A DNA stretch of 64,000 nt from Candidatus Yanofskybacteria bacterium RIFCSPLOWO2_01_FULL_42_49 (GTDB lineage Bacteria > Patescibacteriota > Minisyncoccia > 2-02-FULL-40-12 > GWA2-44-9): assembly GCA_001795615.1 (NCBI GenBank), contig MGKI01000004.1:22324-86323 (forward strand), written 5' to 3'. Within the stretch, counting starts at the first letter, position 1. Every line of letters starts with the position of its first letter. Under the pieces are notes generated by a model. The model was not told the origin of the DNA. It made no database searches and saw only the letters and a program-made list of their open reading frames with translations. Shown in pieces: positions 991 to 62,386 of this stretch. The position numbers and the translations under genes were made by a program.

Positions 991-3695
991 ATCTTTAACT
1001 CGTCCATCTCCGCCCAATTGTGTCCGCTCTTAACATCTACAACCAGCGGCACATCGAGTTTGTAAACATTCTCCATAATATCCTTTATTTTGTCCGCTAT
1101 GTTTTTAACCGAGTTTTCTTTTACTTCAAAAAGGAGTTCATCGTGGACTTGAAGCAGTAAAAATACTTTGTCTTGCTTGCCTGAATTATGTGTATATTCA
1201 AAGGCTTTTATCATTGCCAGTTTCACCAAATCAGCGGCAGTACCCTGAATGGGCATATTTATAGCCATGCGCTCGGCCTGGCTTACAATCTGTGGCATAC
1301 TTGACCTTATCTCGGGGAACCATCTCCTTCTGCCAAAGACCGTTGAAACATAACCGTCCTTGCGGGCTTTCATTTTCATATCGTCCATGTATCTGGCGAT
1401 CCCGGAAAACTCTTTCAGATACTTGTCGATAAATTCTCTCGCCCGCTCACGGGAAACACCGGAAGCTCTCTGAAAGCCGAGAATTCCCATTCCGTACAAA
1501 ATGCCGAAATTCATAACTTTTGCGTCACGACGCATGTTTTTATCAACCATCTCCGGTTTAACACCGAAAATTTCCGCCGCTGTGCGTGTATGAATATCCT
1601 CTCCCCTCCTAAATGCCGCCATCATTTTCTCGTCTTGGGAAATATGGGCCGCTATTCTCAACTCAAGCTGGGAATAATCAAAAGACACCAGTTTGTACCC
1701 AGGAGAGGCAATGAATGCTTTCCTAAATTCCTGCCCAAGTTCCGTGCGTATTGGTATGTTCTGGAGGTTAGGGTCCTGGCTGGCAAGCCGGCCGGTCGTA
1801 GTGCCTGTTTGGTTAAATGTAGTATGCAACCGTCCGGTTGTCTTGCTTATTAAACTCGGGAACGGATCTATGTAGGTCGTTTTTAATTTCTGAACTTCTC
1901 TATATCTTAATATCTTCTCTATTACCGGATGTTCGTCAACCAGCTTTTCCAGCTCGCCCGCAGCTGTGGAGAGAGCCCCTTTGGCTGTTTTTCTTACTTT
2001 GCCCTTTAGGTTAAGTCCGGTAGGTGCCGGACCAAAAAGCACCTCTTTTAACTGTTTCGGAGAGTTAATGTTAAATTCCGTGCCGGCTAGTTTGTATATA
2101 TCTTTTTCCAGACCGCTTATCTCGACGGCCACCAATTTAGACAACCTTGCTATCGCTTTGGAATCAATCAAAATTCCCCGCAATTCCATTTCCGCTAGAA
2201 TTCTTGCTGTTGGAGCCTCTATATTCTCAAAAAGCCATTCCAATTTTTCTTTTTTTAGCCGTTCGGATTGTCTTTCTTTTAACTTACCCACAAAAACAGG
2301 GACCTCTCTGGTGTTTTGGCTAATACTTTCTTGAAATTCATCAAAATATATTTTTTCCAGACTGTAATCTTTGCGGTCTGAATTTAAAAGATAGGCCGCA
2401 AGCTTGGTGTCAAATCCCGCACGGCCCAGCTCAATTCCGAAACTTAACAAGAGCTTGGCCGACCCCTTGAGATCGTGACCGATTTTAAAAACCCCGTCTC
2501 CCTCAAAAATATCTTTGGCAGTTTTAAACAGGTCTTTGTCTTCCACAATCATGGGCCAAACTGCGCTAAAACATCTTTTTTCAACGCAAAAATCAAAAAA
2601 TTCACTGCTTAAATTAAATGAAAATTCTCTCGCCTCTTTTATCTCATTGAAAGCCCCGGCAACATCTTTCTTTTTTCTCAACTCTTTAACGCCGGCGGAA
2701 GTTTCCGTTTTGACGGTTTCCGGTAACACCATCTGCCCCTGACTGAAAATACTGATTTCATCAAGCCTCTTGATCAAACTATAAAGTCCTAATTCTTTAA
2801 ATAACTTCTCTATTTCTGTCCTGTTTAAATTTTTAAGCCAGTCCGCTTTATCCAGACTAAAATCAATGTCTACATCCCTTATAATGGTGGCCAATTTTTT
2901 TGAAAAAAATGCCATGTCTTTGTTTTCAAGCAGTTTTTGAATTAATTTCTCTGAAAGTGGCGGTTTAATTTGGATTTTATTTTTTTTGAGATTTGTATTT
3001 TGAGATTGTTTAGAGATTAGGGTTTCGAGATTAGAGATTTCCTCATACAAAAATTCAAGGGTCTTGAATTTTTGTATGAGAGCTGCCGCCGTCTTCTCCC
3101 CCACTCCCGGAACCCCCGGTATATTATCTGACGGGTCGCCCTTGAGACCCTTAAAATCATTGAGTTGCTCCGGCTTTAAGCCATATCTTTTGAACACTTC
3201 GTTCTCGTCGTAAATGACCGTATCTGTGACACCTTTTCTCAACGTAAAAACAACCACCTTGTCTCCATCAACCAGCTGAAGAGTGTCCAGATCGCCGGTC
3301 ATTATTATTGTTTGGATATCTTTATCTTCTTTTGACCTCTCTGCCAAGGAACCTATCAAATCATCCGCTTCAAAACCGGGCTTTTCATAAATAGGAATAC
3401 CGAATGCCATCAGTATCTCTTTAATCAGCGGAGTCTGGGCATGAAGTTCGTCGGGAGCTTTCTCCCTGTGAGCCTTATACTCAGCAAACTCTTCGTGTCG
3501 GAATGTCGGCGCCGCCAAATCAAATGTCGCCGCAATATAGTCCGGCTTTATGTCCTTTATCATTTTGAGGAGAACAGCGGTGAAGCCGAAAACTGCGTTC
3601 GTCGGAACGCCCTTGGGAGAACTTAGCGTCGGCGGCAGAGCGTGAAAAGCTCTGTGGACTAACGCGTGACCGTCAATCAATACTAATTTTTTCAT
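987..3695 (-). CDS. polA: DNA polymerase I
   Basis: 902 aa; N-terminal 5'-3' exonuclease (LVLIDGHALVHRAFHA), polymerase motifs RRDAKVMNFGILYGMG and QVHDELLFE. Confidence 0.92.
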   Translation of the reverse strand: MKKLVLIDGHALVHRAFHALPPTLSSPKGVPTNAVFGFTAVLLKMIKDIKPDYIAATFDLAAPTFRHEEFAEYKAHREKAPDELHAQTPLIKEILMAFGIPIYEKPGFEADDLIGSLAERSKEDKDIQTIIMTGDLDTLQLVDGDKVVVFTLRKGVTDTVIYDENEVFKRYGLKPEQLNDFKGLKGDPSDNIPGVPGVGEKTAAALIQKFKTLEFLYEEISNLETLISKQSQNTNLKKNKIQIKPPLSEKLIQKLLENKDMAFFSKKLATIIRDVDIDFSLDKADWLKNLNRTEIEKLFKELGLYSLIKRLDEISIFSQGQMVLPETVKTETSAGVKELRKKKDVAGAFNEIKEAREFSFNLSSEFFDFCVEKRCFSAVWPMIVEDKDLFKTAKDIFEGDGVFKIGHDLKGSAKLLLSFGIELGRAGFDTKLAAYLLNSDRKDYSLEKIYFDEFQESISQNTREVPVFVGKLKERQSERLKKEKLEWLFENIEAPTARILAEMELRGILIDSKAIARLSKLVAVEISGLEKDIYKLAGTEFNINSPKQLKEVLFGPAPTGLNLKGKVRKTAKGALSTAAGELEKLVDEHPVIEKILRYREVQKLKTTYIDPFPSLISKTTGRLHTTFNQTGTTTGRLASQDPNLQNIPIRTELGQEFRKAFIASPGYKLVSFDYSQLELRIAAHISQDEKMMAAFRRGEDIHTRTAAEIFGVKPEMVDKNMRRDAKVMNFGILYGMGILGFQRASGVSRERAREFIDKYLKEFSGIARYMDDMKMKARKDGYVSTVFGRRRWFPEIRSSMPQIVSQAERMAINMPIQGTAADLVKLAMIKAFEYTHNSGKQDKVFLLLQVHDELLFEVKENSVKNIADKIKDIMENVYKLDVPLVVDVKSGHNWAEMDELKI

Positions 3696-4628: not shown

Positions 4629-5093
4629 TTAAACTCTTTCCCAACTTATTTTTCGCTTGCTTTCGGAAACATGATCAATATGAACTTTTATTAGTTTTTT
4701 GGGCAAGATCTTACTCACTCTTTCCGGCCACTCGATTAAAATAATACTACGCGACTCGTTGAATATAGTTTTCAGGTCAAGAGTTATGAGATCTCTATGG
4801 TCTCTGACGCGGTAGCAATCGAGGTGATATAAACAGGTTTTAGGTTTTAGGTTATAGGTTATAGGCAAAATTGGATATTTTTTCATCAAAACAAATGTTG
4901 GACTTTTTATTTTTGCTTTAATCCCCAGTGCCTTGGCAAAACCTTTGACAAAAGTCGTCTTCCCCGCCCCCAACTTCCCTTCAAGTGTGATAACACTCGC
5001 CCTGAGCCGAGTCGAAGGGTTTTTCATTATTTTAAGCGCCAAATCCCCGGCAATTTTTTGCGTCTCTTTTTCGCTTTTAGATAGATAAATCAC
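4629..5093 (-). CDS. tsaE: tRNA threonylcarbamoyladenosine biosynthesis ATPase TsaE (YjeE)
   Basis: P-loop GKLGAGKTTFVKG, then SPTF..YHLDxYR. Confidence 0.8.
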   Translation of the reverse strand: MIYLSKSEKETQKIAGDLALKIMKNPSTRLRASVITLEGKLGAGKTTFVKGFAKALGIKAKIKSPTFVLMKKYPILPITYNLKPKTCLYHLDCYRVRDHRDLITLDLKTIFNESRSIILIEWPERVSKILPKKLIKVHIDHVSESKRKISWERV

Positions 5094-9869: not shown

Positions 9870-9873
9870 CAAA

Positions 9874-9895
9874 GGCGCTAAAACAGCGCCTTTTT
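9874..9895 (+). terminator. Rho-independent terminator
   Basis: GGCGCT-aaaac-AGCGCC followed by TTTTT. Confidence 0.7.
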
Positions 9896-10145
9896 AACGA
9901 ATCAATGGGTGAGCCGTTTAAGATTCGCCACCCCACCTAGTCAGCGATTGCTTTTCGGCATCACAGATATTCGCTGATTAGGTGTGGGGGTTTCTTACAG
10001 AACACTTCGACTAGCTCAGTGTAAATACTTTCGACAGCTCGACCAAGCTCACTTCAGACTAGCTCAATGTAAGCAAAAGTATAGTTATTTGACACTTCAA
10101 GTACATTATAATATCTTGTGGCAACAGCACTTTAACGAGGATAGA

Positions 10146-12553: not shown

Positions 12554-12604
12554 AATTTTTAGCGACTAGTGACTAGTGCTTAGCGACTAGAATTAACGAC
12601 TTCG

Positions 12605-12637
12605 CAAGTCCAACGGACTTGCGAAGTCGACTAGTGG
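12605..12637. promoter_or_regulatory. Perfect 15-bp stem hairpin between dksA-like and comM
   Basis: CGACTTCGCAAGTCC-aac-GGACTTGCGAAGTCG; flanked by agcgactag word repeats. Confidence 0.5.
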
Positions 12638-12649
12638 CTAGTAGCTAAT

Positions 12650-17683: not shown

Positions 17684-17837
17684 CAAAAAACTCGATTTCT
17701 ACTGCGCTACTGCACTCGAGTACTTTGGCCAATACAGCCCCATTCATAATTGGTTTTCAACTACTTTTTGTTGGTTATTAATTAACTTGGATTAAAGATA
17801 CCACGGATAATTAATAAAAACAATTCCGAGTAGCGGT

Positions 17838-17990
17838 CACGACACCCGACCCCAAGACGAACGTTCGGAGGCGGGTTCTCGGAAAAGTTTCTTGAGCGTG
17901 CTTTAGCCGCTCTAAGAATCTCTGTAGCCGAGAGAGAGCGTAAAACCCAGCAGGGTTTTGACGCGGTGAGTCGAGGGTTGGGTGTCGTGA
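17838..17990 (-). promoter_or_regulatory. Multi-hairpin structured region between the NYN gene and pnp
   Basis: Outer arms CACGACACCCGACCC / GGGTTGGGTGTCGTG enclose hairpins GAGCG..CGCTC and AAACCC..GGTTTT. Confidence 0.45.
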
Positions 17991-17993
17991 ATA

Positions 17994-23584: not shown

Positions 23585-25132
23585 CTATAAACTTCCGATT
23601 GTTTTTTCTTCTCCGTACACTTCTAATATATCACCGACAGACACTTCAGCGAATGGTTGACCAGAGATAACATCAAGACGCATGCCGGCATCGAGACCTT
23701 CTTTAACTTCGGCCATGTCTTCTTTGTTATGCTGAAGTTGGCCTAGTTTGCTTTTTCCGATAACTTCACTATTTCTGACAACATCTACAACGGCCCCTCT
23801 CACAACTTTGCCGGACAAAACCTTGCCACCCACAATCTGGCTTTTAGAATCTTTTTTAAATAAAGCCAAGACTTTAAGTTTGCCCAACAGAGTTCTTTGA
23901 ATTTCCGGATCAAGCTGTTCTGCCATGTTTTTCCTTATCGCTTCTATCAGTTCATATATAACATCGAAGGTTTGGACTTTGATACTCTCTTTTTCGGTTA
24001 ACCTGACAACCGACGGCTCGATGTTAACCCTAAAACCAACAATATCTGATTTTGTGGCAATTGCTGTTTTCACATCGTTTTCAGTTATGTCACCTATATC
24101 ATAGCCGATCACATTGCATCTGACCTTGTCAGACTTAACTGCCTTTAACGAAACATCAACCGCCTCCAGAGAACTTTTAACATCGGCTTTTAAAACAAGG
24201 TTGTATATTTTTTTCTCCGGGTCCGCTGACTCGCTTATGAAAGAGAATAGGGGAGTAAGGTCTAGACTCTTGTTTTCGTCGGTAATCTTTTCTGCTTCGG
24301 TTTTTGAATCTACTGATACAAATGACGCTCCCGTATCGGGAACTTCGCTCCACCCCGTAAGTATAACCGGCTGGGACGGTTCGGCTTTTTCAATCGATTT
24401 GCCGGTAAAGTCCTCCATCATTTTTATTTTCCCGACAACTCTCCCCGCCGCAACCCAGTCGCCCAACGCAAGCACTCCTTTTTGGACCAGAGCCGTGGCA
24501 ACATAACCTTTTCTTTTGTCCAAGTGCGACTCTATTATTACCCCCTCGGCCGGCTTTGATAAATCTTCTCGAAGTTCTTCCAGTTCGGCCACGAGCAATA
24601 TCATATCTAAAAGTTCAGAAATATTTTTGCCTGCTTTTGCCGATATTTCAACAACTGGTACTTTTCCCCCCCAATCTTCAACAAGAACTTCTTCTGCAGC
24701 AAGGTCTTGTTTTACTTTCTGAACATTGGCCCCCTCTTTGTCTATTTTGTTAACAGCTACAATGAAAGGGATATTTTCCTCTTTGATTATCTTTATCGCT
24801 TCCTTCGTTTGAGGCTTAACGCTTTCATCGGCGGCCACAACAAGAACCGCAATGTCAGCAATCTTAGCGCCTCGAGATCTTATCGCCGTAAACGCCTCAT
24901 GACCCGGCGTGTCCAAAAAAGTTATTTTTTGGGATATTTCGACATTTCGAAATTTCGACATATCAATTTGGTATGCTCCCACATGCTGAGTAATACCTCC
25001 CGATTCCTTTTCCATTACATTTGTTTTCCGTATGGTGTCTAGTAATCTTGTCTTTCCGTGGTCGACATGACCCAAAACAACCACCACCGGCGGCCGTAGT
25101 CTGTTTTTTGTTGTATTGCCCGCATCTGACAT
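23585..25132 (-). CDS. infB: Translation initiation factor IF-2 (short form)
   Basis: G domain VVVLGHVDHGKTRLLD, DTPGHEAF, NKIDK; C-terminal beta-barrels. Confidence 0.95.
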   Translation of the reverse strand: MSDAGNTTKNRLRPPVVVVLGHVDHGKTRLLDTIRKTNVMEKESGGITQHVGAYQIDMSKFRNVEISQKITFLDTPGHEAFTAIRSRGAKIADIAVLVVAADESVKPQTKEAIKIIKEENIPFIVAVNKIDKEGANVQKVKQDLAAEEVLVEDWGGKVPVVEISAKAGKNISELLDMILLVAELEELREDLSKPAEGVIIESHLDKRKGYVATALVQKGVLALGDWVAAGRVVGKIKMMEDFTGKSIEKAEPSQPVILTGWSEVPDTGASFVSVDSKTEAEKITDENKSLDLTPLFSFISESADPEKKIYNLVLKADVKSSLEAVDVSLKAVKSDKVRCNVIGYDIGDITENDVKTAIATKSDIVGFRVNIEPSVVRLTEKESIKVQTFDVIYELIEAIRKNMAEQLDPEIQRTLLGKLKVLALFKKDSKSQIVGGKVLSGKVVRGAVVDVVRNSEVIGKSKLGQLQHNKEDMAEVKEGLDAGMRLDVISGQPFAEVSVGDILEVYGEEKTIGSL

Positions 25133-28197: not shown

Positions 28198-28363
28198 ATA
28201 AAATGACCAATACCCAATATCCAATACCCAATAAAGCTTTAAAAATGTTTAAAACATTTGAAAATTTGAAAATTGGTTATTGATTGGTTGTTGAACACTT
28301 AGTAATTGGTTAATAAATATGTGTGTATAAGTTTTGTCCAGTATTAAGATATAATTAAAAAGT

Positions 28364-29460: not shown

Positions 29461-29528
29461 CCAACGACTGACAACTAACGACCAGCGACAAAATTGTCGT
29501 AAGTCGTAAGTCGTAGGTCGTAGATCAG

Positions 29529-29810: not shown

Positions 29811-29874
29811 TAGCCAACAAGCTAGTAAGCTAACAAGCTAGTAAGCTAAAGTTTAAAAATGCTTACAAGCTTAC

Positions 29875-31656
29875 ATGCTTACCAGCTTACATGCTGAATT
29901 GGTTAAAATTCCTCAAACATTAGTAGAAGAATTTATAAAACAAGGCCTTATCTCCGAAGAGGACATTAAATACCTTGAAGATCTGGCTCAGACCCAAAAT
30001 AAAGATCTTGGCCAAATGATAATTGACCAGGGAATTATGTCCGAGAACGATCTTTTAAATTTCAAATCCAGAGTATATCAGCTTCCGATCGTAAAGCTTG
30101 AAGAAATAGAACTGGATAAAGAGGCGCTAAAAGAACTCCCGGAGGACATAGTCGCATTCTACAAAATTATTCCTTTTGCCAAAGAAAGCGGAGTCTTGAG
30201 GATCGGTATAGTTGACCCAGAGGATATAAATGCTCTCGAAGCACTTAAATTCCTTTCCGGCCAAAAAGGACTGACAATAGAAAAATATCTAATAGGATAC
30301 AAGGACTTTGCCAATATAACCAGATCATACAGAACCCTGACCGGCGAGGTAGGGGAGGCTCTTGAATCGCTAGCTGAAGAACTAGAAAAAAAAGTAGTAA
30401 AAGAGGGGCCGGCAAAAATAAAACTTGAGGAGCTAAGCGCAGAGGCGCCTGTTACCAGAATTGTAGCCGTCATTGTAAGGCACGCCGTTGAATCTAGAGC
30501 ATCAGATATACACATAGAGCCCTTCGACGACCGAGTAAGGGTTAGATTCAGAATAGACGGCGTTTTGATAACTTCCCTGACCTTGCCTAAAAATCTCCAT
30601 TCTGCCGTTGTAACCCGCATTAAAATCCTTTCCGATTTGAAAATCGACGAAACACGGCTGGCTCAAGACGGAAGATTCGCCACCAAACTCGGGGAAAGAA
30701 AAATTGATTTTCGCGTATCCACTTTTCCAACCAAAAACGGAGAAAAAGTAGTAATGCGTATATTAGACCCCTTGGCAGGCGTTGTTACCTTGGGAGATCT
30801 TGGTCTTGAAGGCAGATCCCTTGATATTCTTCAACGGGGAATGACCAAGCCCTTTGGCAGTATTTTGATAACCGGACCGACCGGTTCAGGAAAATCAACG
30901 ACTCTCGCGGCCATGTTAAGAGTAATGAATACCGAGGACATCAACATCGTAACGCTGGAAGATCCGATAGAATATTTCGTGGATGGAGTTAATCAGTCAC
31001 AAGTACACGAAGAGATTGGTTATACTTTTGCCAACGGATTGAGACATATCCTTAGGCAAGACCCCGATGTGATAATGGTTGGCGAGATCAGAGACAAAGA
31101 GACAGCCGGTCTTGCCACTCAAGCCGCTTTAACCGGCCACATTGTCCTTTCTACTCTCCACACCAATGACTCAATGGGAGTAGTGCCTCGACTAATTGAC
31201 ATGGGTGTTGAAAAATATTTAATCCCGCCGACAGTAAATGTTGCCGCCGCGCAACGACTTTTGCGTCGCCTCTGTCCTGATTGCAAAGTTAAAGCAAAAG
31301 CAAACAGCGGAGAAGAAAAAATTATAAATGACGCCATTAAAGACATGCCATCCGAATACTATAAAAGTTTATTCTCAGAAAAAGGATACACAATTTATAA
31401 GCCCAATACCGATAATCCCTGTAAAACATGTGGGGGGAAAGCTTTTAAGGGCAGGCTAGGCATATTTGAAATGATGGAGATGACGGATGAATTTGAAAAA
31501 ATAATATTAGGCACCCTATCGGAGGCAGCGATGAGAGAAGAAGCAAAAAGACAAAACATGATTACCATGTTCCAGGACGGAATTTTGAAGGTCTTAAATG
31601 GGATGGTATCATTGGAAGAGCTGCTTGAAGTAGCACAAGCCAATGAATCGGCGTAG
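29875..31656 (+). CDS. pilB: Type IV pilus assembly ATPase PilB (GspE family)
   Basis: N-terminal GSPII_E repeats, Walker A GPTGSGKSTT, tetra-Cys motif CPDC...CKTCGG. Confidence 0.9.
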   Translation: MLTSLHAELVKIPQTLVEEFIKQGLISEEDIKYLEDLAQTQNKDLGQMIIDQGIMSENDLLNFKSRVYQLPIVKLEEIELDKEALKELPEDIVAFYKIIPFAKESGVLRIGIVDPEDINALEALKFLSGQKGLTIEKYLIGYKDFANITRSYRTLTGEVGEALESLAEELEKKVVKEGPAKIKLEELSAEAPVTRIVAVIVRHAVESRASDIHIEPFDDRVRVRFRIDGVLITSLTLPKNLHSAVVTRIKILSDLKIDETRLAQDGRFATKLGERKIDFRVSTFPTKNGEKVVMRILDPLAGVVTLGDLGLEGRSLDILQRGMTKPFGSILITGPTGSGKSTTLAAMLRVMNTEDINIVTLEDPIEYFVDGVNQSQVHEEIGYTFANGLRHILRQDPDVIMVGEIRDKETAGLATQAALTGHIVLSTLHTNDSMGVVPRLIDMGVEKYLIPPTVNVAAAQRLLRRLCPDCKVKAKANSGEEKIINDAIKDMPSEYYKSLFSEKGYTIYKPNTDNPCKTCGGKAFKGRLGIFEMMEMTDEFEKIILGTLSEAAMREEAKRQNMITMFQDGILKVLNGMVSLEELLEVAQANESA

Positions 31657-31799
31657 TGCCTAGCGACTAGTGCCTAGCGACTAAAAATTAGTGTCTAACA
31701 ATTTAGTGCCTAGCGATTAGTAATTTCTTACTAGTGGCTAGTGGCTAAATCCTAATGGCTAACTTTAGTGGCTAGTGGCTAGTGGCTAGTGGCTAATCG

Positions 31800-32864
31800 G
31801 TGGATTACAAACAATACCTAGACGAGCTTCTATTCACAACAGCTGAAAACGGAGCTTCAGATTTGCACATTTCTCCAGGCCACTATCCGTCAATAAGAAT
31901 AGACGGCCGGCTTATTCAAGTCGCGGATAAGCAGATACTAGATAAGGAAATTTCTGAAGGAATTGTTTTAGAGTTGGTCGGATCGGAAAGAAAAGATCGT
32001 TTTATATCCGAAAAAGAGCTCGATTTTTCATACGAGTATGCTCAAAAATATAGATTCAGAGTAAATACATACAACACTCGGGGCGGAATGGCAGCGTCTC
32101 TGCGTTTAATCCCTAATAAAATACGGACAATAGAAGAATTGGGGTTGCCCCCCATAATCAAGATATTCAGTCGACTTTCCCAAGGATTTGTTTTGGTGGT
32201 CGGTCCCAATGGCCACGGCAAATCAACCACATTATCCGCAATTATAGATCTCGTAAACAAAGAACGAGCTGAAAAAATAGTCACCATCGAAGATCCTATC
32301 GAATATATTTTCACTCCCGACAAAAGTATTATTGATCAGAGGGAAATATATCAAGACACATTCTCGTTTCATAAAGCCCTCCGTTCAACATTCAGACAGA
32401 ACGTCAATATCATTATGGTGGGAGAGATGCGAGACTACGAAACAATGAGCGCAGCAGTAACAGCCGCCGAAACCGGCCATCTTGTTTTGGCGTCACTTCA
32501 TACAAACAGCGCTTCTCAAACTATCGAACGCATCATTGATAGTTTTCCTCCAAATCAGCAGACTCAAATAAGAAACCAGCTAGCCAACACTATCTCCGGG
32601 ATAATTTCACAAAGATTAATACAACGAATAAAGGGTGGCCTTGTGCCAGCCACAGAAGTAATGATCGCGACAACAGCCGTAAGGACGCTGATCAGAGACA
32701 ACCGGCCGAGACAACTGGATCTTGTAATAGAGACCAGCCAAGATGTCGGAATGATGCCGCTGGATAGATCGCTTGCTGACTTGGTTAGAAGAAAGGAAAT
32801 ATCTATAGACAGAGCTGAATTTTATTCGACCAATTCGCTAGAGTTAAGAAATCAGTTAAAATAA
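31800..32864 (+). CDS. pilT: Twitching motility ATPase PilT
   Basis: Walker A GPNGHGKSTT, PilT-type Asp/His boxes. Confidence 0.9.
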   Translation: MDYKQYLDELLFTTAENGASDLHISPGHYPSIRIDGRLIQVADKQILDKEISEGIVLELVGSERKDRFISEKELDFSYEYAQKYRFRVNTYNTRGGMAASLRLIPNKIRTIEELGLPPIIKIFSRLSQGFVLVVGPNGHGKSTTLSAIIDLVNKERAEKIVTIEDPIEYIFTPDKSIIDQREIYQDTFSFHKALRSTFRQNVNIIMVGEMRDYETMSAAVTAAETGHLVLASLHTNSASQTIERIIDSFPPNQQTQIRNQLANTISGIISQRLIQRIKGGLVPATEVMIATTAVRTLIRDNRPRQLDLVIETSQDVGMMPLDRSLADLVRRKEISIDRAEFYSTNSLELRNQLK

Positions 32865-32974
32865 TGCGGACCTACGAACAAGTTACGCGAACGCTACGAA
32901 CAAGAGGCGGACCGATGTGGGCTGTTCGGTTCGCAATGTTCGCATAGTAGTTCGCATCGTTCGCATTATATTTT

Positions 32975-34183
32975 ATGGATTTTTCTTACAAAGTTAAAAC
33001 CAAAACCGGAGAAATAGCAGAGGGAACAGTGGACGCCCCTGAAGAAAACACAGCCGTTAGCATTCTCCACAGCAAGGGCTATGTAGTTTTGTCTCTAACA
33101 CCCCTAAAGAAGGGGGTTTTAACATCTGACATGGGCCAAATTATTTCAAGGCCCAACATTAAAGACATCGTAATTTTTACAAGACAATTATCTACTTTAG
33201 TAGATGCTGACATGCCGATCAGCGAGGGACTGAGAACACTAGCTAAACAAAGCGAGAAACCAATGTTCAAGAAAATAATTACAGAGGTTTCTGAATCTGT
33301 AGAAGCGGGGTCTTCTCTGTCAAATGCCCTGACGGCTTATCCTAAACTATTCTCCACATTTTACATAAAACTGGTGCAATCAGGCGAAATTTCAGGAAAA
33401 CTTCAGGAGTCGCTTCTTTATCTTGCTGAGTATCTTGAAAGAAGCAGGGGCATTAATTCTAAGATACGCGGAGCACTTGCTTATCCGGCTTTTGTTGTTT
33501 TCGCATTGGGCGTGGTCACATTAATTATGGTGATATATGTGCTCCCTCAATTACTATCAATCTTTGAGGAAGCCGGGGTAGCAGATCTGCCCATGACAAC
33601 CAGAATTCTTATTTGGGTTACAACTTTTGTTAATAAATATCTGTATTTTTTGATGACGGGCGTCTTAGTCTTGGTATATGTTGGCTGGACATATATTAAA
33701 ACCCCGGCCGGCAAAGAAAGGCTAGATGATCTTAAAATAAAATTTCCTTCGCTGGGAGTAGTAATAAGAAATCTTTACCTTGCCCGTATTTCTGAGAGTT
33801 TATCTACTCTGATAAAATCCGGAATACCAATATTAGAGGGGATAAAGATAACATCCGAATTGGTTGGTAATGAAAATTATAAAAAAATAATGCTGGCCGC
33901 CGAAGAAAATGTAAGAAACGGGGGCACGATATCAGAAGTATTGGTGAAATATAAAGAGGTGCCACCATTGTTTTCATCAATGGTTGCTATCGGGGAGAAG
34001 ACCGGAAAATTAGACTCCATGCTAGAACACATATCCAAGTTCTATAAATCCGAATCAGATAATACCATCGATAACATTTCTCAATTGATAGAGCCTATTC
34101 TTGTTCTTGTTCTTGGTTTTGCTGTTGCCATATTGGTATCAAGCATTTTGTTACCAATATATAACTTGGTTGGAATAGCATAA
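32975..34183 (+). CDS. pilC: Type IV pilus platform protein PilC (GspF family)
   Basis: Two T2SS-F domains, three TM segments. Confidence 0.9.
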   Translation: MDFSYKVKTKTGEIAEGTVDAPEENTAVSILHSKGYVVLSLTPLKKGVLTSDMGQIISRPNIKDIVIFTRQLSTLVDADMPISEGLRTLAKQSEKPMFKKIITEVSESVEAGSSLSNALTAYPKLFSTFYIKLVQSGEISGKLQESLLYLAEYLERSRGINSKIRGALAYPAFVVFALGVVTLIMVIYVLPQLLSIFEEAGVADLPMTTRILIWVTTFVNKYLYFLMTGVLVLVYVGWTYIKTPAGKERLDDLKIKFPSLGVVIRNLYLARISESLSTLIKSGIPILEGIKITSELVGNENYKKIMLAAEENVRNGGTISEVLVKYKEVPPLFSSMVAIGEKTGKLDSMLEHISKFYKSESDNTIDNISQLIEPILVLVLGFAVAILVSSILLPIYNLVGIA

Positions 34184-34367
34184 ACTAAATCTCTAAATCC
34201 TAAACTCCAATCTCTAAACAATCTCAAAATTCAAAATATTTTTGATATTTGGATTTTGCCTGTCTGCCAGTAGTCAGAAATTTATTTAGAAATCAGAGAT
34301 TAGAGATTTCAACTACTGTGGATATCTTGCGTTGTACTATTAAAAATGCTTTAACTATAATAAAGAC

Positions 34368-34871
34368 ATGATAAACACAGGGAATAAGTCACAAAAAGGT
34401 TTTACCTTGGTCGAGCTATTGGTGGTCATAGCCATCATTGGAATTTTAGCAACTTTATTATTGCTTCAATTGGGAGTAGCCCGTCAGCGTGCCAGAGACG
34501 CAAAACGCATAGCAGATATAAACCAAACCCGAACCGCTATTGAGCTTTATTTCGACGATAACGGCCAATATCCTCAACAAGCAACATTTGCAGGACTGGG
34601 TGCGCTTTTTGTCCCCAAATACCTTACGCTTTTACCAGTAGATCCTCTAAATGTAGCGCCAAATACTTATAATTATAACTACAACGGCAACACTAAATAT
34701 CAAGTCTGGGGAGAGTTAGAACAATGGGCGCAAGCTCTGGCTAGCGACGCCGACATAAACTCTACAGCCGGCGGATGGACGGGACAGACAGTTAACGGTG
34801 CAACTGACGCAAAAACAAACTGCACCACTGCGGCGGCTGACTGCGTGTACGATCAGGGCCAATCACAGTAG
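34368..34871 (+). CDS. pilA: Type IV major pilin (prepilin)
   Basis: Class III signal KGFTLVELLVVIAIIGILA. Confidence 0.85.
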   Translation: MINTGNKSQKGFTLVELLVVIAIIGILATLLLLQLGVARQRARDAKRIADINQTRTAIELYFDDNGQYPQQATFAGLGALFVPKYLTLLPVDPLNVAPNTYNYNYNGNTKYQVWGELEQWAQALASDADINSTAGGWTGQTVNGATDAKTNCTTAAADCVYDQGQSQ

Positions 34872-34975
34872 TAATTAGCCACTAGCAATTAGTCGCTAGT
34901 TATTAGTAACTAAATCAAAATCTCGCCACTAGGCGAGATTTTGATAACGACAGATAAATACATTATTATTAGATC

Positions 34976-36137: not shown

Positions 36138-36274
36138 ATTATTCTAATTTCTAATTAACCTAATTATTCTAAAGAAGCCCTAATTCCAAAATATCTAATG
36201 CCTAAATTTTTAGTCATTTAGTCATTGGGATTTATTTAGGTCAATTAGAATAATTAGAGCAATTAGGTTAATTT

Positions 36275-36820
36275 GTGAGTAAAGGTTTTACATTAATTGA
36301 GGTAGTGGTAGTGGCTGGAATAACCGGTTTTATAACAACCATGTTTCTTATTAATTTCTCGAGATCAAGAATTAACTTTATAGAAGAGGTTAATACATTT
36401 AAATCCAAAATCAGAATAGCTCAAACAAAAGCCACATCAAGCACTCAGCTCAATAACACCATAAGATGCGGATATGGCGTCAGGTACATAAACAATCAGT
36501 CCTATGCGATATATGCGGGAGAAAGCACAAGCACATATGACTGTTCCGCCCAAAATAAAGATTACGACCCTACTGGCAGCCTAAATAACGACACTAGCGT
36601 TGAAACGATAAATTTTGCTGACGCCAAAGTAGAGTTCAAGTCAGTTTTCCGAGCAATCTATTTTGAGCCGCCTGACCCAAAGACATTTATAATTGACTCC
36701 GGGGGTTCGGTCCACAATGAACCGAATTACGCTTTGTCTGTTACATTAGGGAAAATAGGGGGCACTTGCCCACAGGACTGTAAAACAATAAATGTATTTA
36801 CATCAGGAAAAATCGAATAG
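36275..36820 (+). CDS. Minor pilin/pseudopilin (prepilin-type N-terminus)
   Basis: KGFTLIEVVVVAGITGF; GTG start. Confidence 0.7.
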   Translation: MSKGFTLIEVVVVAGITGFITTMFLINFSRSRINFIEEVNTFKSKIRIAQTKATSSTQLNNTIRCGYGVRYINNQSYAIYAGESTSTYDCSAQNKDYDPTGSLNNDTSVETINFADAKVEFKSVFRAIYFEPPDPKTFIIDSGGSVHNEPNYALSVTLGKIGGTCPQDCKTINVFTSGKIE

Positions 36821-37286: not shown

Positions 37287-37343
37287 TGCAATTAGCCATC
37301 AATAGTTAGCCACTAGAACTTAGAACTAGTGACTACTAGCTAA

Positions 37344-37859
37344 ATGAACAAAATGAATAATCAAAAAGGTTTCAGTATAGTCGAGGTTGTCGTTACCACT
37401 TTTGTGTTCTCAATAATTTCGATAATCGTTGTCACCAACTTTGTTGGCATACTCGACCTGCAAAGAAGAGGTTCTGCTGCTCAAGTTATCCAGGAAGAGG
37501 CTCTGTTTGCCGTAGAATCGATGGCCAGAGAAATAAGGGTAAGCCAAATTCAAAGCCCCAATGACCCGAATTGTACCCTTACTAGTTTAACCATTGATCA
37601 TCCCATAAACGGTCCGACTATCTATTCAGTCGGTAACGGAGTAATAAACAAGACTGTTGGCGGAAACACTTTCTCGATTACCTCTACCAAAGTTAACTTC
37701 TCCAGACTAAATTTTTGTGTAAAGGGAGCGGGCATTGACAATGAACAACCAAGAATAACTATAGTTGCTTCAATACAGCCAACAAACGGAGAAGATCTTC
37801 AATTCGACATACAAACAAGCATTTCTTCCAGAGATTTAAGGGAAGAACTACTTAACTAG
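37344..37859 (+). CDS. Minor pilin/pseudopilin
   Basis: QKGFSIVEVVVTTFVFSIIS. Confidence 0.7.
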   Translation: MNKMNNQKGFSIVEVVVTTFVFSIISIIVVTNFVGILDLQRRGSAAQVIQEEALFAVESMAREIRVSQIQSPNDPNCTLTSLTIDHPINGPTIYSVGNGVINKTVGGNTFSITSTKVNFSRLNFCVKGAGIDNEQPRITIVASIQPTNGEDLQFDIQTSISSRDLREELLN

Positions 37860-37927
37860 CGACTAGCGATTAGCGACTAGCGACTAGTTAAAGTTGCTAA
37901 TGGCTAATGGCTAATGGCTAATGGCTA

Positions 37928-38272
37928 ATGCAGAAGGGTTCAATAATTGTTTTTACTGTATTAATACTCACAATGATTTTGACGATAACTTTAACTTTGA
38001 CCAGAATATTTATTCCCCGGATACGAACCATTACAGAAGCCGCAAATTCAGTCAGCGCTATATACGCAGCTGACAGCGCCATAGAGTGGTGCCTTTATAC
38101 TAACCGTGGGAAAACTCCTTCTTTAGCTCAGCCGGCAATGGGCAACAGCGCTACATACCAAATATATAACAATGGTAATCCGTCTATCTGCCCCAATGGT
38201 GAAGCACTCAACTACCGCACCGTAGGCACATTCAGGGGAGTGAGCCGGTCATTTGAAGTATCGGAAATATAA
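37928..38272 (+). CDS. PilX-like small membrane protein (minor pilin-like)
   Basis: N-terminal hydrophobic helix QKGSIIVFTVLILTMILTITL. Confidence 0.45.
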   Translation: MQKGSIIVFTVLILTMILTITLTLTRIFIPRIRTITEAANSVSAIYAADSAIEWCLYTNRGKTPSLAQPAMGNSATYQIYNNGNPSICPNGEALNYRTVGTFRGVSRSFEVSEI

Positions 38273-40703: not shown

Positions 40704-42141
<1,438 letters not shown>

Positions 42142-42146
42142 AACTT

Positions 42147-42731
42147 ATGAACGAAGAGGTTGTGTCAAATACTTTAGCATCAATATATAACTTATCCGAA
42201 TTTCATATCGGTTCTTTTACTTTGGATAGTTTTTACGCCTACTTTTCCGGTTCAGCGACGATCGGTTTATTCAGTAATTTAAAAGTCCTCGGCGGGTTCT
42301 TGTCTTTAGTGTTATTTATATTGTTTTTAATAAACTTCATAAAAACGGACAAGCTTGTCAGAACAAGAATTAACTTCCTAAAGTCGCTGGCTCCGCCAAA
42401 ACCGACAGAAGAAAGTCCGCTTGGCTCAAGGTGGGAAGAAATACAAAAACACCTTAATTCCACCAAAGAAGCGGAGTGGAAGTTTGCCGTTATTGAAGCC
42501 GATGCTTTAGTGGATAGTTTACTTAAAGCCAGCGGTTACCCGGGAGATACGATGGGCGACCGGTTAAAAAACATAAATAAAGCTCAAATTGTAACCTTAG
42601 ACGGGTTGTGGGAAGCTCATAAAATAAGGAATCGGCTGGCTCATGACCTCAATTACTTCCTTCGCTACGGCGAAGCCAAACGCGCCATTCAACTCTACGA
42701 AAAAACCCTCAAGGAATTAAATGCTCTCTAA
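42147..42731 (+). CDS. Hypothetical membrane protein
   Basis: 194 aa, one TM (FLSLVLFILFLINFI). Confidence 0.5.
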   Translation: MNEEVVSNTLASIYNLSEFHIGSFTLDSFYAYFSGSATIGLFSNLKVLGGFLSLVLFILFLINFIKTDKLVRTRINFLKSLAPPKPTEESPLGSRWEEIQKHLNSTKEAEWKFAVIEADALVDSLLKASGYPGDTMGDRLKNINKAQIVTLDGLWEAHKIRNRLAHDLNYFLRYGEAKRAIQLYEKTLKELNAL

Positions 42732-57396: not shown

Positions 57397-57400
57397 CACA

Positions 57401-57522
57401 AATCCACAAATGTACACGAATACCACAAATAGTTAAGAACCCGCCACGAAAAAGACACACGAATATATTTGTGTGAAGCCATTCGTGGCATTCGCATGTC
57501 ATTCGTAGATTAGTGTTACATT
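57401..57522 (+). promoter_or_regulatory. Conserved upstream module, copy 1 (shared with 58547-58701)
   Basis: Shares cacgaataccacaaatagt, gaatatatttgtgtgaagccattcgt and attcgtagattagtgttaYattatg with the region upstream of the VirB4 ATPase ORF. Confidence 0.55.
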
Positions 57523-57843
57523 ATGCGCTTCCAACTACCACAATTTATAGAGACGGAGACGAAATTAGTCGGGCCCTTGACCCTGAGACAGTTCCTATGG
57601 GTGGCCGGGGGAGTGGCCATACTTTTCTTATTGTTTATGACTATCGGCCTTAGTTTTGCGTTTTTTGTGGCTGGGATACCAGTGGCCGCGATTTTTACGG
57701 CTCTTGCTTTTTTCAAAATGGAAGGAATGCCGTTGATAAACTACATCGCTTATTTGCTTTCGTACTTGCTTAACCCTAAAAGATACATTTTTAGAAAATC
57801 AGAGGAAGATAATTTAAAATTTAAAAATCAAAGTGCAAAATGA
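57523..57843 (+). CDS. VirB3/PrgI-like small two-TM membrane protein
   Basis: 106 aa with two hydrophobic helices; position immediately upstream of VirB4. Confidence 0.45.
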   Translation: MRFQLPQFIETETKLVGPLTLRQFLWVAGGVAILFLLFMTIGLSFAFFVAGIPVAAIFTALAFFKMEGMPLINYIAYLLSYLLNPKRYIFRKSEEDNLKFKNQSAK

Positions 57844-57933
57844 CAATGCAAAATGTTAAAATTTTAAATCTAAATCATTTTGAATTTTAAACTGTAATTT
57901 TTAATTTTGATATTTACATTTTACATTTGAAAC

Positions 57934-58545: not shown

Positions 58546-58546
58546 C

Positions 58547-58701
58547 GCAAATCTACGAATGACGCACGAATACCACAAATAGTACACAAATAGCGCGCTA
58601 CAAATGCGCTCACATGAATATATTTGTGTGAAGCCATTCGTAGTCGGCGATTTGTAGAACATTCGTAGTATTCGTTAAGATTTGTAGATTAGTGTTATAT
58701 T
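58547..58701 (+). promoter_or_regulatory. Conserved upstream module, copy 2, separating the two VirB4 ORFs
   Basis: Same blocks as 57401-57522. Confidence 0.55.
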
Positions 58702-60450
58702 ATGAGCGAAGCGAATAACAAAAATAGTTTATCCGAGTACCTGGCTCCCGGGGCTTTTAATGTGTCCCCGTCCCATATTCAAATGGGGGATAAATTCGTC
58801 AGAACAGTCTTTATCGCCACCTATCCGAGATATTTGCAGACCAACTGGTTCTCTCCGATTGTTAACCTCGATCGAGTTCTTGATATTTCCATATTTATAC
58901 TGCCAAAAAATACGGCAACCGTTTTAAAACAGCTGCGAGATCAACTTACGCGGCTTGAGGCTCAAACGATGGAGGAATCCTCCAAGGGAAAAGTAAGGGA
59001 TCCTATTTTAGAAACGGCCATTAACGACATAGAAAACTTGCGGGATCGACTTCAGCAGGGCACGGACAAATTTTTTGAGTTAGGCGTATATATAACAATC
59101 TACGAAAACAGTTTAAAAGAGCTGGACGAAACAGAAAACAAACTGCGGGGCATGATGGAATACCAACTCGTCTTTCCTAAAGTATCTACATTCAGAATGC
59201 TTGAAGGATTTACTTCAACCTTGCCCCTAAACGACGACCGCCTGAACATTCACACTTCCCTCAACACTGAACCGCTTTCGTCTATATTTCCTTTTGTTTC
59301 GTTCGATTTAACTTCAGATAGCGGTATACTCTATGGCATCAACACACACAATAATTCTCTTGTTCTTTTTGACAGATTTCAGCTCGAAAATTACAACGCG
59401 GTGGTATTTGGAAAGTCCGGAGGCGGAAAAAGTTACACCGTAAAGCTCGAGATACTGAGAAGCCTGATCTTCGGCGCTCAAGTTCTGATAATTGACCCTG
59501 AGGATGAGTACAAGTATCTTGCCGAAACGGTTGGAGGTACTTCCGTAAAAATATCCATCACTTCGGACCAGCACATAAACCCCTTCGACCTGCCAGATCC
59601 CAAACCGGATGAGTCCCCGGCAGATGTTTTTAAATCTCATATTTTAGACCTGACCGGCCTTTTGAGGTTGGTACTCGGTGAGTTGACTCCCGAAGAAAGC
59701 GCCATATTGGACGAAGCATTAATACAAACATACGCCATCAAAGACATTACTCCAGATTCTAACTTTACCAATATCGAGCCTCCGGTTTTATCTGACCTTC
59801 AAAACATACTTGAGGGATTAACTGGCGCCGAATCAATGGCGGTACGAATTAAAAAATATACGCAAGGCACCTTCGCTGGGTTCTTAAATATGCCGACAAA
59901 TGTTTCTTTGAACAATAATTTAGTCGTATTCAGCATACGAGATCTGGAAGAAGAACTTAGACCGATAGCAATGTATTCTATTCTCAATCATATCTGGACA
60001 TCCGTGAGAAGAACCCAGAAAAAGCGTCTTCTGATCGTGGACGAAGCCTGGTGGCTCATGAAATACGAAATTGGAGCCGCCTTTTTGTCCAATATCGCAA
60101 AGAGGGCCAGGAAATATTATCTGGGTTTAACTACGATATCGCAAGACATTGCAGATATGCTTTCTACCGACAGGGGCAAGAGTATTGTAACTAATTCGTC
60201 TATACAGATTCTTACCAAGCAGTCGCCGGCCGCCATAGATATAATTCAAAAAACATTCAACCTTACGGACGCCGAAAAATATTATCTCCTGGAAGCAAGG
60301 GTTGGTTTTGGGTTGTTCTTCGTGGGACAAGACCACATAGGTATCAGGGTTGTGGCATCATATGCGGAGGACCAGATTATAACCTCCGACCCCAAGCAGA
60401 TACTTGAGATAGAGAAGGCAAAAGAAGAGTGGGCAAAGTTAAGAAGCTAG
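58702..60450 (+). CDS. VirB4/TraE-family T4SS ATPase (C-terminal ATPase portion)
   Basis: Walker A VVFGKSGGGKSYT, Walker B LLIVDEAWWLM; the conserved YPRYL..GWF region follows the start. Confidence 0.75.
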   Translation: MSEANNKNSLSEYLAPGAFNVSPSHIQMGDKFVRTVFIATYPRYLQTNWFSPIVNLDRVLDISIFILPKNTATVLKQLRDQLTRLEAQTMEESSKGKVRDPILETAINDIENLRDRLQQGTDKFFELGVYITIYENSLKELDETENKLRGMMEYQLVFPKVSTFRMLEGFTSTLPLNDDRLNIHTSLNTEPLSSIFPFVSFDLTSDSGILYGINTHNNSLVLFDRFQLENYNAVVFGKSGGGKSYTVKLEILRSLIFGAQVLIIDPEDEYKYLAETVGGTSVKISITSDQHINPFDLPDPKPDESPADVFKSHILDLTGLLRLVLGELTPEESAILDEALIQTYAIKDITPDSNFTNIEPPVLSDLQNILEGLTGAESMAVRIKKYTQGTFAGFLNMPTNVSLNNNLVVFSIRDLEEELRPIAMYSILNHIWTSVRRTQKKRLLIVDEAWWLMKYEIGAAFLSNIAKRARKYYLGLTTISQDIADMLSTDRGKSIVTNSSIQILTKQSPAAIDIIQKTFNLTDAEKYYLLEARVGFGLFFVGQDHIGIRVVASYAEDQIITSDPKQILEIEKAKEEWAKLRS

Positions 60451-60528
60451 GTTTTAGGGGTTAGGTTTTAGGGGTTAGGTTTTAGAAAAACTCCTAAAAG
60501 CTAAAAGCTAAAAGCTAAAAGCTGGAAA

Positions 60529-61254: not shown

Positions 61255-61308
61255 TTTCTAATTATTCTAATTGCTCTAATTGACCTAAATAAATCCCCAC
61301 AACTGAAT

Positions 61309-61338
61309 GACTAAAAAAGCCCCGAAAATGACTGAATT
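61309..61338 (-). terminator. Rho-independent terminator for the - strand gene 61355..61744
   Basis: GCCCCGAAA...TTTCGGGGC followed on the - strand by TTTTTT. Confidence 0.7.
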
Positions 61339-61354
61339 ATTTCGGGGCAAGCGG

Positions 61355-62108: not shown

Positions 62109-62113
62109 AACAA

Positions 62114-62371
62114 GACACTAGAGACCCGGCCTAACTATTTAAACACTCCCCTAAGCGAGGCCCTACCGTCTTCGAATCACTTTGACGAATCGAGGAAGAG
62201 GACAAGGTTGGTATGAATGGATTCCAATAATCATAGGTCGAACGCCGAGCAGCGAGTCCTTGCGAGCGTAGCGAGGAGGCAAGCGAGGGTTACCTGTGAT
62301 TATTGGCTAAATCCATACATATCATACCGAGTCCGATGACAAGATGAGGAACCGTGATGAGAAGACACGGT
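62114..62371 (+). repeat. Mosaic intergenic element copy B, possibly a structured RNA
   Basis: gacactagagacccgg, then the 5' block ccgtcttcgaatcactttgacgaatcgag, a long imperfect helix ggtatgaatggattccaataatcataggt / acctgtgattattgg..aatccatacatatcatacc, and the 3' block agatgaggaaccgtgatgagaagacacgg. The terminal helix GUCUUC/GAAGAC is shared with copy A. Confidence 0.6.
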
Positions 62372-62386
62372 AAAGCCGAGCGAAAC

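Follow-up and report, generated by a model that had tools for sequence, protein, structure and literature searches.

Genomes of the Candidate Phyla Radiation (CPR)/Patescibacteria are very small and gene-dense, so spacers of 60–150 nt that consist of nothing but repeats are unexpected within their core operons. Spacers of this kind occur in a type IV pilus operon and elsewhere in a 64 kb stretch of DNA (the window) from Candidatus Yanofskybacteria bacterium RIFCSPLOWO2_01_FULL_42_49 (contig MGKI01000004.1, positions 22,324 to 86,323). What generates them, and do they serve the genes that they separate? An earlier note, made from the letters of the window alone, had described them as a short word repeated several times, followed after an AT-rich centre by repeats of its reverse complement. 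The feature is real and statistically robust, and a mutational origin is most likely. The reading that we favour, at a probability of roughly 0.55, is that these are palindromic heptanucleotide microsatellites of DNA-level origin, which would arise at tight stop/start junctions and stay palindromic through slippage and template switching.

The architecture is well seen between pilB and pilT (31652–31799, plus strand), where Tandem Repeats Finder (TRF), folding and reading of the sequence give a single hairpin that runs from stop codon to start codon. Its left arm (31654–31724) is composed of TAGTGCC/TAGCGAC units, the first TAG being the pilB stop codon. The loop (about 31725–31728) lies within a short AT-rich centre, and the right arm (31729–31797), of TAGTGGC units, stops 3 nt short of the pilT GTG start at 31800. 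TRF reports arrays of period 7 or 14 at 31654–31683, 31681–31721, 31731–31747 and 31766–31795. The region 31645–31810 folds as one hairpin with about 70 nt per arm (minimum free energy (MFE) of the RNA −69.5 kcal/mol, z −6.1, none of 200 shuffles equally stable; z −5.1 when folded as DNA), in which helices of 5–6 bp are separated by mismatches of 1–2 nt every 7 nt. A gapless repeat search with a 7-nt seed at 31600–31850 reported direct copies and zero inverted pairs. The arms are only 5–6/7 complementary and the palindromic core CTAG is common to all units; because the arms are near complements that share this core, such a search reports their units as direct repeats.

The same order of array and then inverted array was found by TRF, folding and a lag scan with shuffles in about 11 further spacers, with an architecture that stays constant while the words differ, as the earlier note had proposed. 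Twelve of the 15 examples that it listed are hairpins of words and reverse-complement words; the other three (380–420, 57843–57933 and 61255–61320) fit in part; in the last there is just a direct array of 9-mers, with an ordinary terminator after it. The claim of reverse-complement words needs amendment, since the words are near complements with 1–2 mismatches per 7 nt and not true reverse complements.

Period seven and inverted pairing

What unifies these spacers, and was missed in the earlier description, is a 7-nt period. In a lag scan of the window, repeats at lag 7 cover 345 nt, lags 2–6 and 8–13 have no coverage, and shuffled sequences give 0; about 29 of the 79 TRF rows have period 7 and about seven more have period 14. 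A comparison set of 1.35 Mb of related CPR pilus loci behaves in the same way, with 62 strict arrays at period 7 against 1, 7, 5 and 3 at periods 5, 6, 8 and 9, and with 277 TRF rows at period 7. Palindromic heptamer arrays are thus widespread in Paceibacterota, with units filtered for stop codons, and their distribution among the CPR loci is patchy: the two closest metagenome-assembled genomes (MAGs) have none, and others, such as locus L017, are denser in them than the window.

Inverted pairing is a property of the arrays as pairs. If arrays at most 80 nt apart are taken as adjacent, and an inverted partner as one with at most 2/7 mismatches from the reverse complement, 16 of 19 adjacent pairs of heptamer arrays (84%) in the 1.35 Mb are inverted partners. 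Among arrays from different loci the share is 22%, and adjacent arrays show no enrichment of a direct relation. An inverted partner lies within 100 nt of 61% of intergenic arrays, compared with 13–21% in controls in which the sequence was only reversed or only complemented. The idea that inverted arms are a by-product of quasi-palindromic units was rejected, the self-complementarity of the units being that of random intergenic heptamers.

By their 7-nt period the arrays belong to a known class, the heptanucleotide simple-sequence repeats of bacteria. That heptanucleotide repeats are over-represented in bacteria is established, and their excess has been attributed to polymerase slippage (Mrazek et al. 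2007, as related in PMC4679880 and PMC4692102). In the accounts given by those two papers, long simple sequence repeats (LSSRs) and the cyanobacterial short tandemly repeated repetitive sequences (STRRs; including those of Calothrix PCC 7601) share with the present arrays a 7-nt unit, a mostly intergenic location, a patchy distribution and an attribution to slippage, but are described mainly as direct arrays. The marks of this class (at least about three head-to-tail 7-nt copies, in excess of chance and of other unit lengths, predominantly intergenic and varying in copy number between strains) are all found here. In Nostoc, only a few heptamer repeats are paired (PMC4692102).

The arrays are best seen as a multi-word variant of known heptamer repeats, the closest being the GGGAATC heptamers of Xanthomonas campestris and X. 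axonopodis. Most of these are arranged as inverted pairs, 70–75 per genome, that are capable of forming stem-loops; their length varies between close relatives while their position is kept, and their function is unknown (Rehm et al. 2015, PMC4692102). Both systems have intergenic tandem heptamers of variable length, with two nearby arrays of the same heptamer on opposite strands. Xanthomonas uses one G-rich word with G-quadruplex potential, whereas many unrelated AT-rich, stop-bearing words are used per genome here, no listed unit type having a GGG run in every unit. Arm mismatches at regular intervals, and hairpins from stop to start in operons lacking Shine-Dalgarno (SD) sites, are features of the CPR arrays. 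The TAACTGA repeats of marine Beggiatoaceae, with 169 direct sets and one inverted set, have been proposed to play a translational role (MacGregor 2015, PMC4679880). They resemble the CPR arrays in carrying stop codons (TAA, TGA) within the heptamer and in lying just upstream of starts without canonical ribosome-binding sites; they differ in using a single word per genome in direct repeats, and a hairpin architecture is undescribed there.

Other repeat systems fit less well. The earlier note had set the spacers apart from CRISPR repeats, and rightly so: the units are contiguous and 7 nt long (occasionally 8–16) with no unique spacers, where a CRISPR array has constant repeats of about 24–48 nt and unique spacers of similar size. 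TIGR-Tas arrays (tandem interspaced guide RNA arrays with their associated proteins) have been reported in CPR, with 36-nt guides, two variable spacers of 8–12 nt, box C/D-like motifs and an adjoining Nop-domain Tas gene (PMC12045711). Neither their period nor their variable spacers match the present arrays, which are scattered among pilus and housekeeping genes (a Tas gene was not searched for exhaustively). The (A)n/(T)n palindromic microsatellites of fungal mitochondria were judged to be different. Our literature search found no description of these elements in CPR, which is not proof of their absence. What appears new is the host lineage, the many words per genome, the stop-to-start hairpins with periodic mismatches, the stop-codon filter and repeated de novo birth at one junction.

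The words are not independent of the genome in which they occur. CTAGYGRCTAG has nine copies at four loci of the window (389, 12566/12631, 31660–31779 and 37856/37877) against 0.06 expected, and only one match in the loci of other genomes; the reported recurrence of ctagcgactag/tagtggctag words more than 30 kb apart is borne out. Distant arrays share words in 19% of cases within a locus versus 7.7% between genomes, a 2.5-fold difference. CTAG is depleted in coding DNA (observed/expected ratio (O/E) 0.38) and enriched in spacers (O/E 1.49). This genome-specific family and its sharing of words within a locus, together with two similar hairpins (57397–57522 and 58546–58701) that share a 12-nt end motif, could point to copies of a mobile or recognised element, akin to repetitive extragenic palindromic (REP) sequences and bacterial interspersed mosaic elements (BIMEs), to miniature transposable elements with inverted repeats (MITEs), to uptake signals or to words bound by a protein. 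We consider such an origin improbable. Spacers of the same operon mostly use unrelated words (CCAATAC, GTCGTAA, AAGCTAGT, TTAGAGA, CTAAAAG). Among the spacers that were read, neither a loop nor a flank is held in common, and neither terminal inverted repeats nor a target duplication were seen; the elements are tandem arrays with unit-wise insertions and deletions (indels), and no word is frequent enough to resemble an uptake sequence.

REP/BIME sequences, like the arrays, are intergenic hairpin-forming repeats between co-directional genes, and the roles proposed for REPs include mRNA stability and termination. Each REP family has one conserved palindrome of 20–40 nt and is linked to RAYT transposases (PMC3733652), whereas the present words change between spacers and each arm is a tandem array. 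On the criterion of a consensus REP/BIME was ruled out, as the words differ between neighbouring spacers and only the loose CTAG-word family recurs. MITEs were ruled out by the unit-wise indels, and because the pair at 57397–57522 and 58546–58701 is the only exception to a lack of dispersed full-length copies among the spacers read.

Position between genes and a role in the transcript

Although about 90% of the DNA in the CPR loci is coding, 100 of 160 arrays lie mostly outside called open reading frames (ORFs). Heptamer-rich spacers make up 64 of 468 co-directional gaps versus 6 of 153 divergent or convergent ones (p = 6e-4), and 16% of gaps within 5 kb of pilT versus 7% at 5–10 kb (p = 0.009). 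The earlier note called the spacers genome-wide; within the window they are concentrated, with word hairpins in 10 of 10 spacers of the pilus operon and in about 5 of 20 elsewhere. That operon comprises pilM (27097), pilO (28918), pilB (29875–31656), pilT (31800–32864), pilC (32975–34183), pilins and a prepilin peptidase, and a cluster resembling a type IV secretion system (T4SS), with PrgI and a TraG/VirB4-like ATPase, lies at 57.5–61 kb. The earlier placing of the arrays between co-directional genes of these two clusters is therefore upheld, and they cluster in the pilus operon on which these episymbionts are thought to depend. Given their location within co-directional operons, the spacers are presumably transcribed, and the transcripts would presumably fold into long bulged hairpins in which the stop and start codons come near each other.

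The fit between hairpin and spacer is close. Gene boundaries were taken from longest-ORF calling, and distances to start codons are approximate. For 41 heptamer hairpins, the median gap is 3 nt between stop codon and stem and 7 nt between stem and start codon, and hairpins take up a median 86% of their spacer; as unstructured gaps also give a span of 67%, this span is only modestly informative. Hairpins fill the spacer end to end in 54% of cases versus 25–31% in controls. Of the arrays, 40% are in contact with a stop or start codon, where random placement gives 18%. How far the hairpin base lies from stop and start was rejected as proof of coupling, since this measure discriminates only weakly against controls.

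The stop codon is also built into the repeat. For 10 genes, of which four belong to the window, the gene's own stop codon is found again at both +7 and +14; most other spacings give 0–2 such genes, and period 8 gives seven. A stop codon occurs on at least one strand in 94 of 100 intergenic units of the CPR loci (null 61%), and on both strands in 49% (null 22%). Because 7 equals 1 modulo 3, three copies of a unit close all three reading frames. As an observation on the window at large, its ORFs of at least 100 aa end in TAA (33), TAG (21) or TGA (6), so that TAG is unusually frequent and TGA rare.

These positions invite an explanation in terms of RNA, in which the spacers would be functional elements of polycistronic mRNAs whose translation is not led by SD sites. 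In one version, the hairpin would appose stop and start, and terminating ribosomes would re-initiate across the stem (coupling or shunting). In another, it would serve for processing or stability: cut at the 3′ base, it would yield a downstream mRNA that is nearly leaderless and leave the upstream mRNA with a protective 3′ stem. In both, the ratios at which pilus and T4SS components are expressed would be tuned by the number of units. Window genes are essentially without SD motifs upstream, and SD-like motifs precede 7% of 1560 ORFs in the related CPR loci. TATAAT lies 6–8 nt before the ATG or GTG of several genes (starts examined include those of 23585–25132 on the minus strand, 28364, 34368, 51728 and 52151), which suggests leaderless mRNAs, with leaderless initiation and re-initiation. 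The idea that hairpin-bearing spacers are without a leaderless-type promoter of their own was rejected, the trend (12% versus 23%) not being significant. The closeness of the stems to stop and start and the enrichment in co-directional gaps and near the pilus operon would also be expected of such elements. The hairpins have no T-run, which makes transcriptional read-through plausible, and canonical terminators are present elsewhere in the window, so that the word hairpins are a class apart.

Several results go the other way. The sense strand gives the better fold in 22 spacers and the antisense strand in 19, and there are 115 G-U pairs in sense and 118 in antisense; with both strands folding equally well and no excess of G-U pairs on the transcript strand, we see no signature of selection on transcript structure. 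The same junctions work with spacers of 1–4 nt in relatives, and a related strain (L083) has lost most of one arm of the pilB-pilT hairpin. The end-to-end measure is only modestly above its controls, considering the span that unstructured gaps reach, and arrays are also found in coding regions and singly. The truncation in L083, the dispensability of the spacers in relatives and the absent strand signal argue against a required RNA role. We hold a function in the RNA to be somewhat unlikely, if worth keeping in view. A more specific proposal, that the hairpins are tunable intercistronic devices of SD-less CPR, strikes us as doubtful: they would hold the ribosome near the next start or be cleaved to give near-leaderless mRNA, gain and loss of units would act as a rheostat for pilus and secretion stoichiometry or for phase variation, and the stops in every unit would close all frames. 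If the hairpins did act on the mRNA, they would show how operon-internal genes are expressed without SD sites.

A role as terminators or attenuators that separate transcription units is quite improbable. Stable stems do begin within a few nucleotides of stop codons, and a promoter-like TATAAT precedes the next start after the spacers at 28204–28312 and 34187–34306. However, a consensus scan placed a stem and T-run at no word spacer, its overall count being near shuffle expectation; intrinsic terminators were ruled out on this ground. For most hairpins the gap to the next start is 0–9 nt, too short to hold a promoter, and the canonical examples with a GC stem and T-run lie instead at 9871–9897 and 61318–61346. 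With the Rfam 15 covariance models, only tRNAs reach the gathering threshold in the window, and the pilus region gives nothing credible at E ≤ 1.

Origin and turnover of the arrays

Comparison of orthologous junctions is informative about how the arrays arise. In many relatives, the pilB-pilT and pilT-pilC junctions measure 1–13 nt (TAATATG, TAAAATG and the like). Elsewhere, the same junctions hold hairpins of unrelated words: TTAGTAA/ACTAATA (L097), AGGTTTT/CTAACAC (L017), TAGTCAT/CTAAAAG (L003) and CAGCG words (L087). From these lengths and unrelated words it follows that hairpins arose repeatedly and independently. The length polymorphism that the earlier note had proposed to look for in related genomes is also present. 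A near-identical strain (L082) lacks one 16-nt unit in the left arm of the spacer at 29811–29896, and L083 lacks a 50-nt block of the pilB-pilT left arm (31654–31703), bounded by direct repeats. Repeated independent births at one junction, lineage-specific words and gain or loss of whole blocks show an element that is transient on evolutionary time scales, and provide a natural example of non-coding DNA born repeatedly at the same gene junction.

L083 has a further peculiarity. Positions 1–1171 of this metagenome scaffold align with 30502–31671 of the window at about 78% identity in pilB up to about 31490 and at more than 99% downstream, so that it is either a recombinant strain or a chimeric assembly. 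Spacers as recombination junctions were considered and rejected, as this breakpoint lies about 150 nt inside pilB, outside the spacer.

A DNA-level origin is favoured by the lack of a strand signal, the specificity for heptamers, the unit-wise indels, the insertions in coding sequence and the rapid turnover. Under the proposed scheme, replication slippage would duplicate a 7-nt segment at a tight operon junction, the ancestral junction probably being of the TAAnATG type. Such duplications would be tolerated only if the upstream stop and the downstream start stayed intact, and this tolerance would explain why TAG or TAA is usually present in a unit, and why a real stop is often where an array begins or a real start where it ends. 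Fold-back or template-switch synthesis would make an inverted copy of the array and keep the arms in step. Slippage would homogenise each arm separately, giving helices of 5–6 bp with the same 1–2 mismatches every 7 nt. Perfect long palindromes would presumably be removed, and purifying selection would act against damage to flanking genes. We estimate that the apposition of stop and start in the transcript is a tolerated consequence of this process and not the cause of the element's existence.

A precedent for the inverted copying reportedly comes from the work of Lovett and colleagues in E. coli, where quasipalindrome template-switch mutagenesis is said to copy one arm of an imperfect inverted repeat into the other. 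It would be a DNA-level route that keeps arms complementary without selection; it has been described for single short quasipalindromes, whereas here it would operate on the arms of tandem arrays.

A number of observations weigh against palindromic microsatellites of this origin. Template switching is something that we infer and have not observed, and relatives at 85–99% identity gave no intermediates in which co-evolution of the arms could be traced. The spacers at 37860–37927 and 60451–60528 are identical in four and seven assemblies, mostly from different samples and including an NCBI MAG, while their flanks differ by 0.2–0.6% between assemblies; arrays are thus not hypermutable on that scale of divergence. 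A neutral process does not obviously explain the excess of arrays in co-directional gaps, and leaves their concentration near the pilus operon and their end-to-end filling of spacers unaccounted for. The genome-specific word families hint at spread or selection within the genome, and the unit length of 7 nt is itself unexplained.

The invariance of those two spacers bears equally on the possibility, raised in the earlier note, that the arrays are assembly artefacts from collapsed or mis-joined repeats, which we find scarcely credible. Spacers are identical between samples and projects, the window sequence was recovered identically in assemblies from other samples (including NCBI GCA_001794105.1), and the same architecture recurs in dozens of unrelated MAGs. 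Some support for an artefact could be drawn from several short-read contigs that end in the array at 31766–31795, among them one (L086) with suspicious periodic single-nucleotide differences at the contig end, which we do not trust. Three independent short-read contigs (L084, L085 and L086) end at 31760–31790, inside the TAGTGGC array, and it follows that the repeats fragment assemblies of this organism. In practice, the arrays break short-read assemblies and can collapse, which bears on the quality of CPR MAGs.

Further arrays and neighbouring sequence

The remaining spacers of the pilus operon vary the same theme, all on the plus strand. Downstream of pilM (28204–28312; TRF and folding), four copies of CCAATAC are followed by an AT-rich centre and ATTGGTT-type words, with a TATAAT box 8 nt before the next ATG. 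Downstream of pilO (29464–29521; z −6.4), there are four copies each of NNACGAC and then GTCGTAA. Upstream of pilB (29811–29896; MFE −30.5), the units are of 16 nt (2 x 8), with AAGCTAGTAAGCTAAC x2.4 and then GCTTACAAGCTTACAT x2.3. The pilT-pilC hairpin (32865–32965; z −3.3/−4.2) is built of TACGAAC/GCGAAC words and GTTCGCA words at irregular spacings of 9–10 nt. The spacer downstream of pilC (34187–34306; TRF and folding) has CTAAATCT/AATCTCTAA words and then TTAGAGA words, and is followed by the leaderless-type promoter of a pilin gene, with TATAAT 6 nt before the ATG at 34368. At 34872–34945 (z −7.2), a TAGTAAT/TAGCCAC/TAGCAAT/TAGTCGC array of period 7/14 begins at a pilin stop codon, a perfect 14-bp hairpin coming next. 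The spacer at 36153–36273 (z −4.8), with CTAATTNNT words and then AATTAGA words at a period of about 9, ends 1 nt short of a GTG start at 36275.

Between two pilin-like genes lies a short hairpin of TTAGCCA ... TAGAACT ... CTAGCTAA words (37292–37343, plus strand; lag-7 identity 0.50). At 37857–37930 (plus strand; MFE −33.5, z −5.1, distance from the reverse complement 2/7), GCTAATG x5 comes after ACTAGCG x4.7; the upstream pilin-like gene has its stop in the first TAG, and the ATG start at 37928 is provided by the last unit.

The T4SS-like cluster has a TAGGTTT/TAGGGGT x5.4 array and then CTAAAAG x4.3 at 60445–60523 (plus strand; MFE −27.9, distance from the reverse complement 1/7), flanked by the TraG/VirB4-like gene (stop TAG 60448–60450) and by the following gene, which starts at 60529. 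The AT-rich period-7 spacer TTAAAAT ... ATTTTGA (57845–57920, plus strand; lag-7 identity 0.61), which comes after the PrgI-like gene, folds weakly (z −0.2). The two similar hairpins of this cluster, at 57397–57522 and 58546–58701, consist of irregularly spaced ACAAAT/ACGAAT words and each end in the 12-nt motif GTAGATTAGTGTTAYATT right before an ATG; a related TTGTAGATTAGT occurs upstream of pilT in another CPR genome (L012, 6630–6729).

Outside these clusters, the spacer at 12559–12648 (minus strand; z −7.4/−8.5), between DksA-like and Mg-chelatase-like genes that are both on the minus strand, has TAGCGAC/TAGTGAC x4.4 and, on its opposite side, CTAGTGGCTAGTAGCTA, the two enclosing a perfect inner hairpin of 15 bp. 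At 380–425 (no strand assigned; TRF and word search), two TAGCGAC and two TAGCCA(A/C) units of the CTAG word family form an essentially direct array. AGAACTT x4.7 (42119–42152, plus strand) is a single array without an inverted partner, and spans the gatA stop (TAG 42139–42141) and the next ATG (42147).

Heptamer arrays also occur inside coding regions, a point that the earlier note omitted. ACTATGG x5 lies in the gatA reading frame (40849–40883, plus strand; TRF and translation), where it is translated TMDYGLWTMDYG. AGGTTTT/AGGTTAT x4.4 lies in the tsaE frame (4835–4865, minus strand), translated PITYNLKPKT, and AATCTC(T/G)AA-type arrays lie in the polA frame (2969–3039, minus strand), translated EISNLETLISKQSQNTNLKK; the latter use the word family of the spacer at 34187–34306. 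Both of these were found by TRF, and Pfam alignments of polA and tsaE have extra residues at the points where the arrays lie. All three arrays are in-frame low-complexity insertions, as expected of indiscriminate mutation filtered by selection.

Two other spacers are highly structured. That at 62109–62386 (278 nt, between minus-strand genes) forms one very long imperfect hairpin (MFE −101 kcal/mol, z −7.9), with no 7-nt period and no credible Rfam match. That at 17782–17993 (212 nt, between convergent genes; z −6.2) is without a match in Rfam at E ≤ 1; it could represent an RNA not yet described.

As to the host, PilT (31800–32864) is 75–78% identical to proteins of Candidatus Yanofskybacteria MAGs, and the best 80 genomic relatives are all Patescibacteria/CPR. 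The cumulative GC skew of the window has its minimum at about 26–30 kb, where genes switch from mostly minus strand on the left to mostly plus strand on the right, a possible replication origin region. In the window, there is strong avoidance of the tetranucleotide ACGT (O/E 0.09 in coding and 0.19 in intergenic DNA), which is suggestive of a restriction-modification system that targets ACGT.

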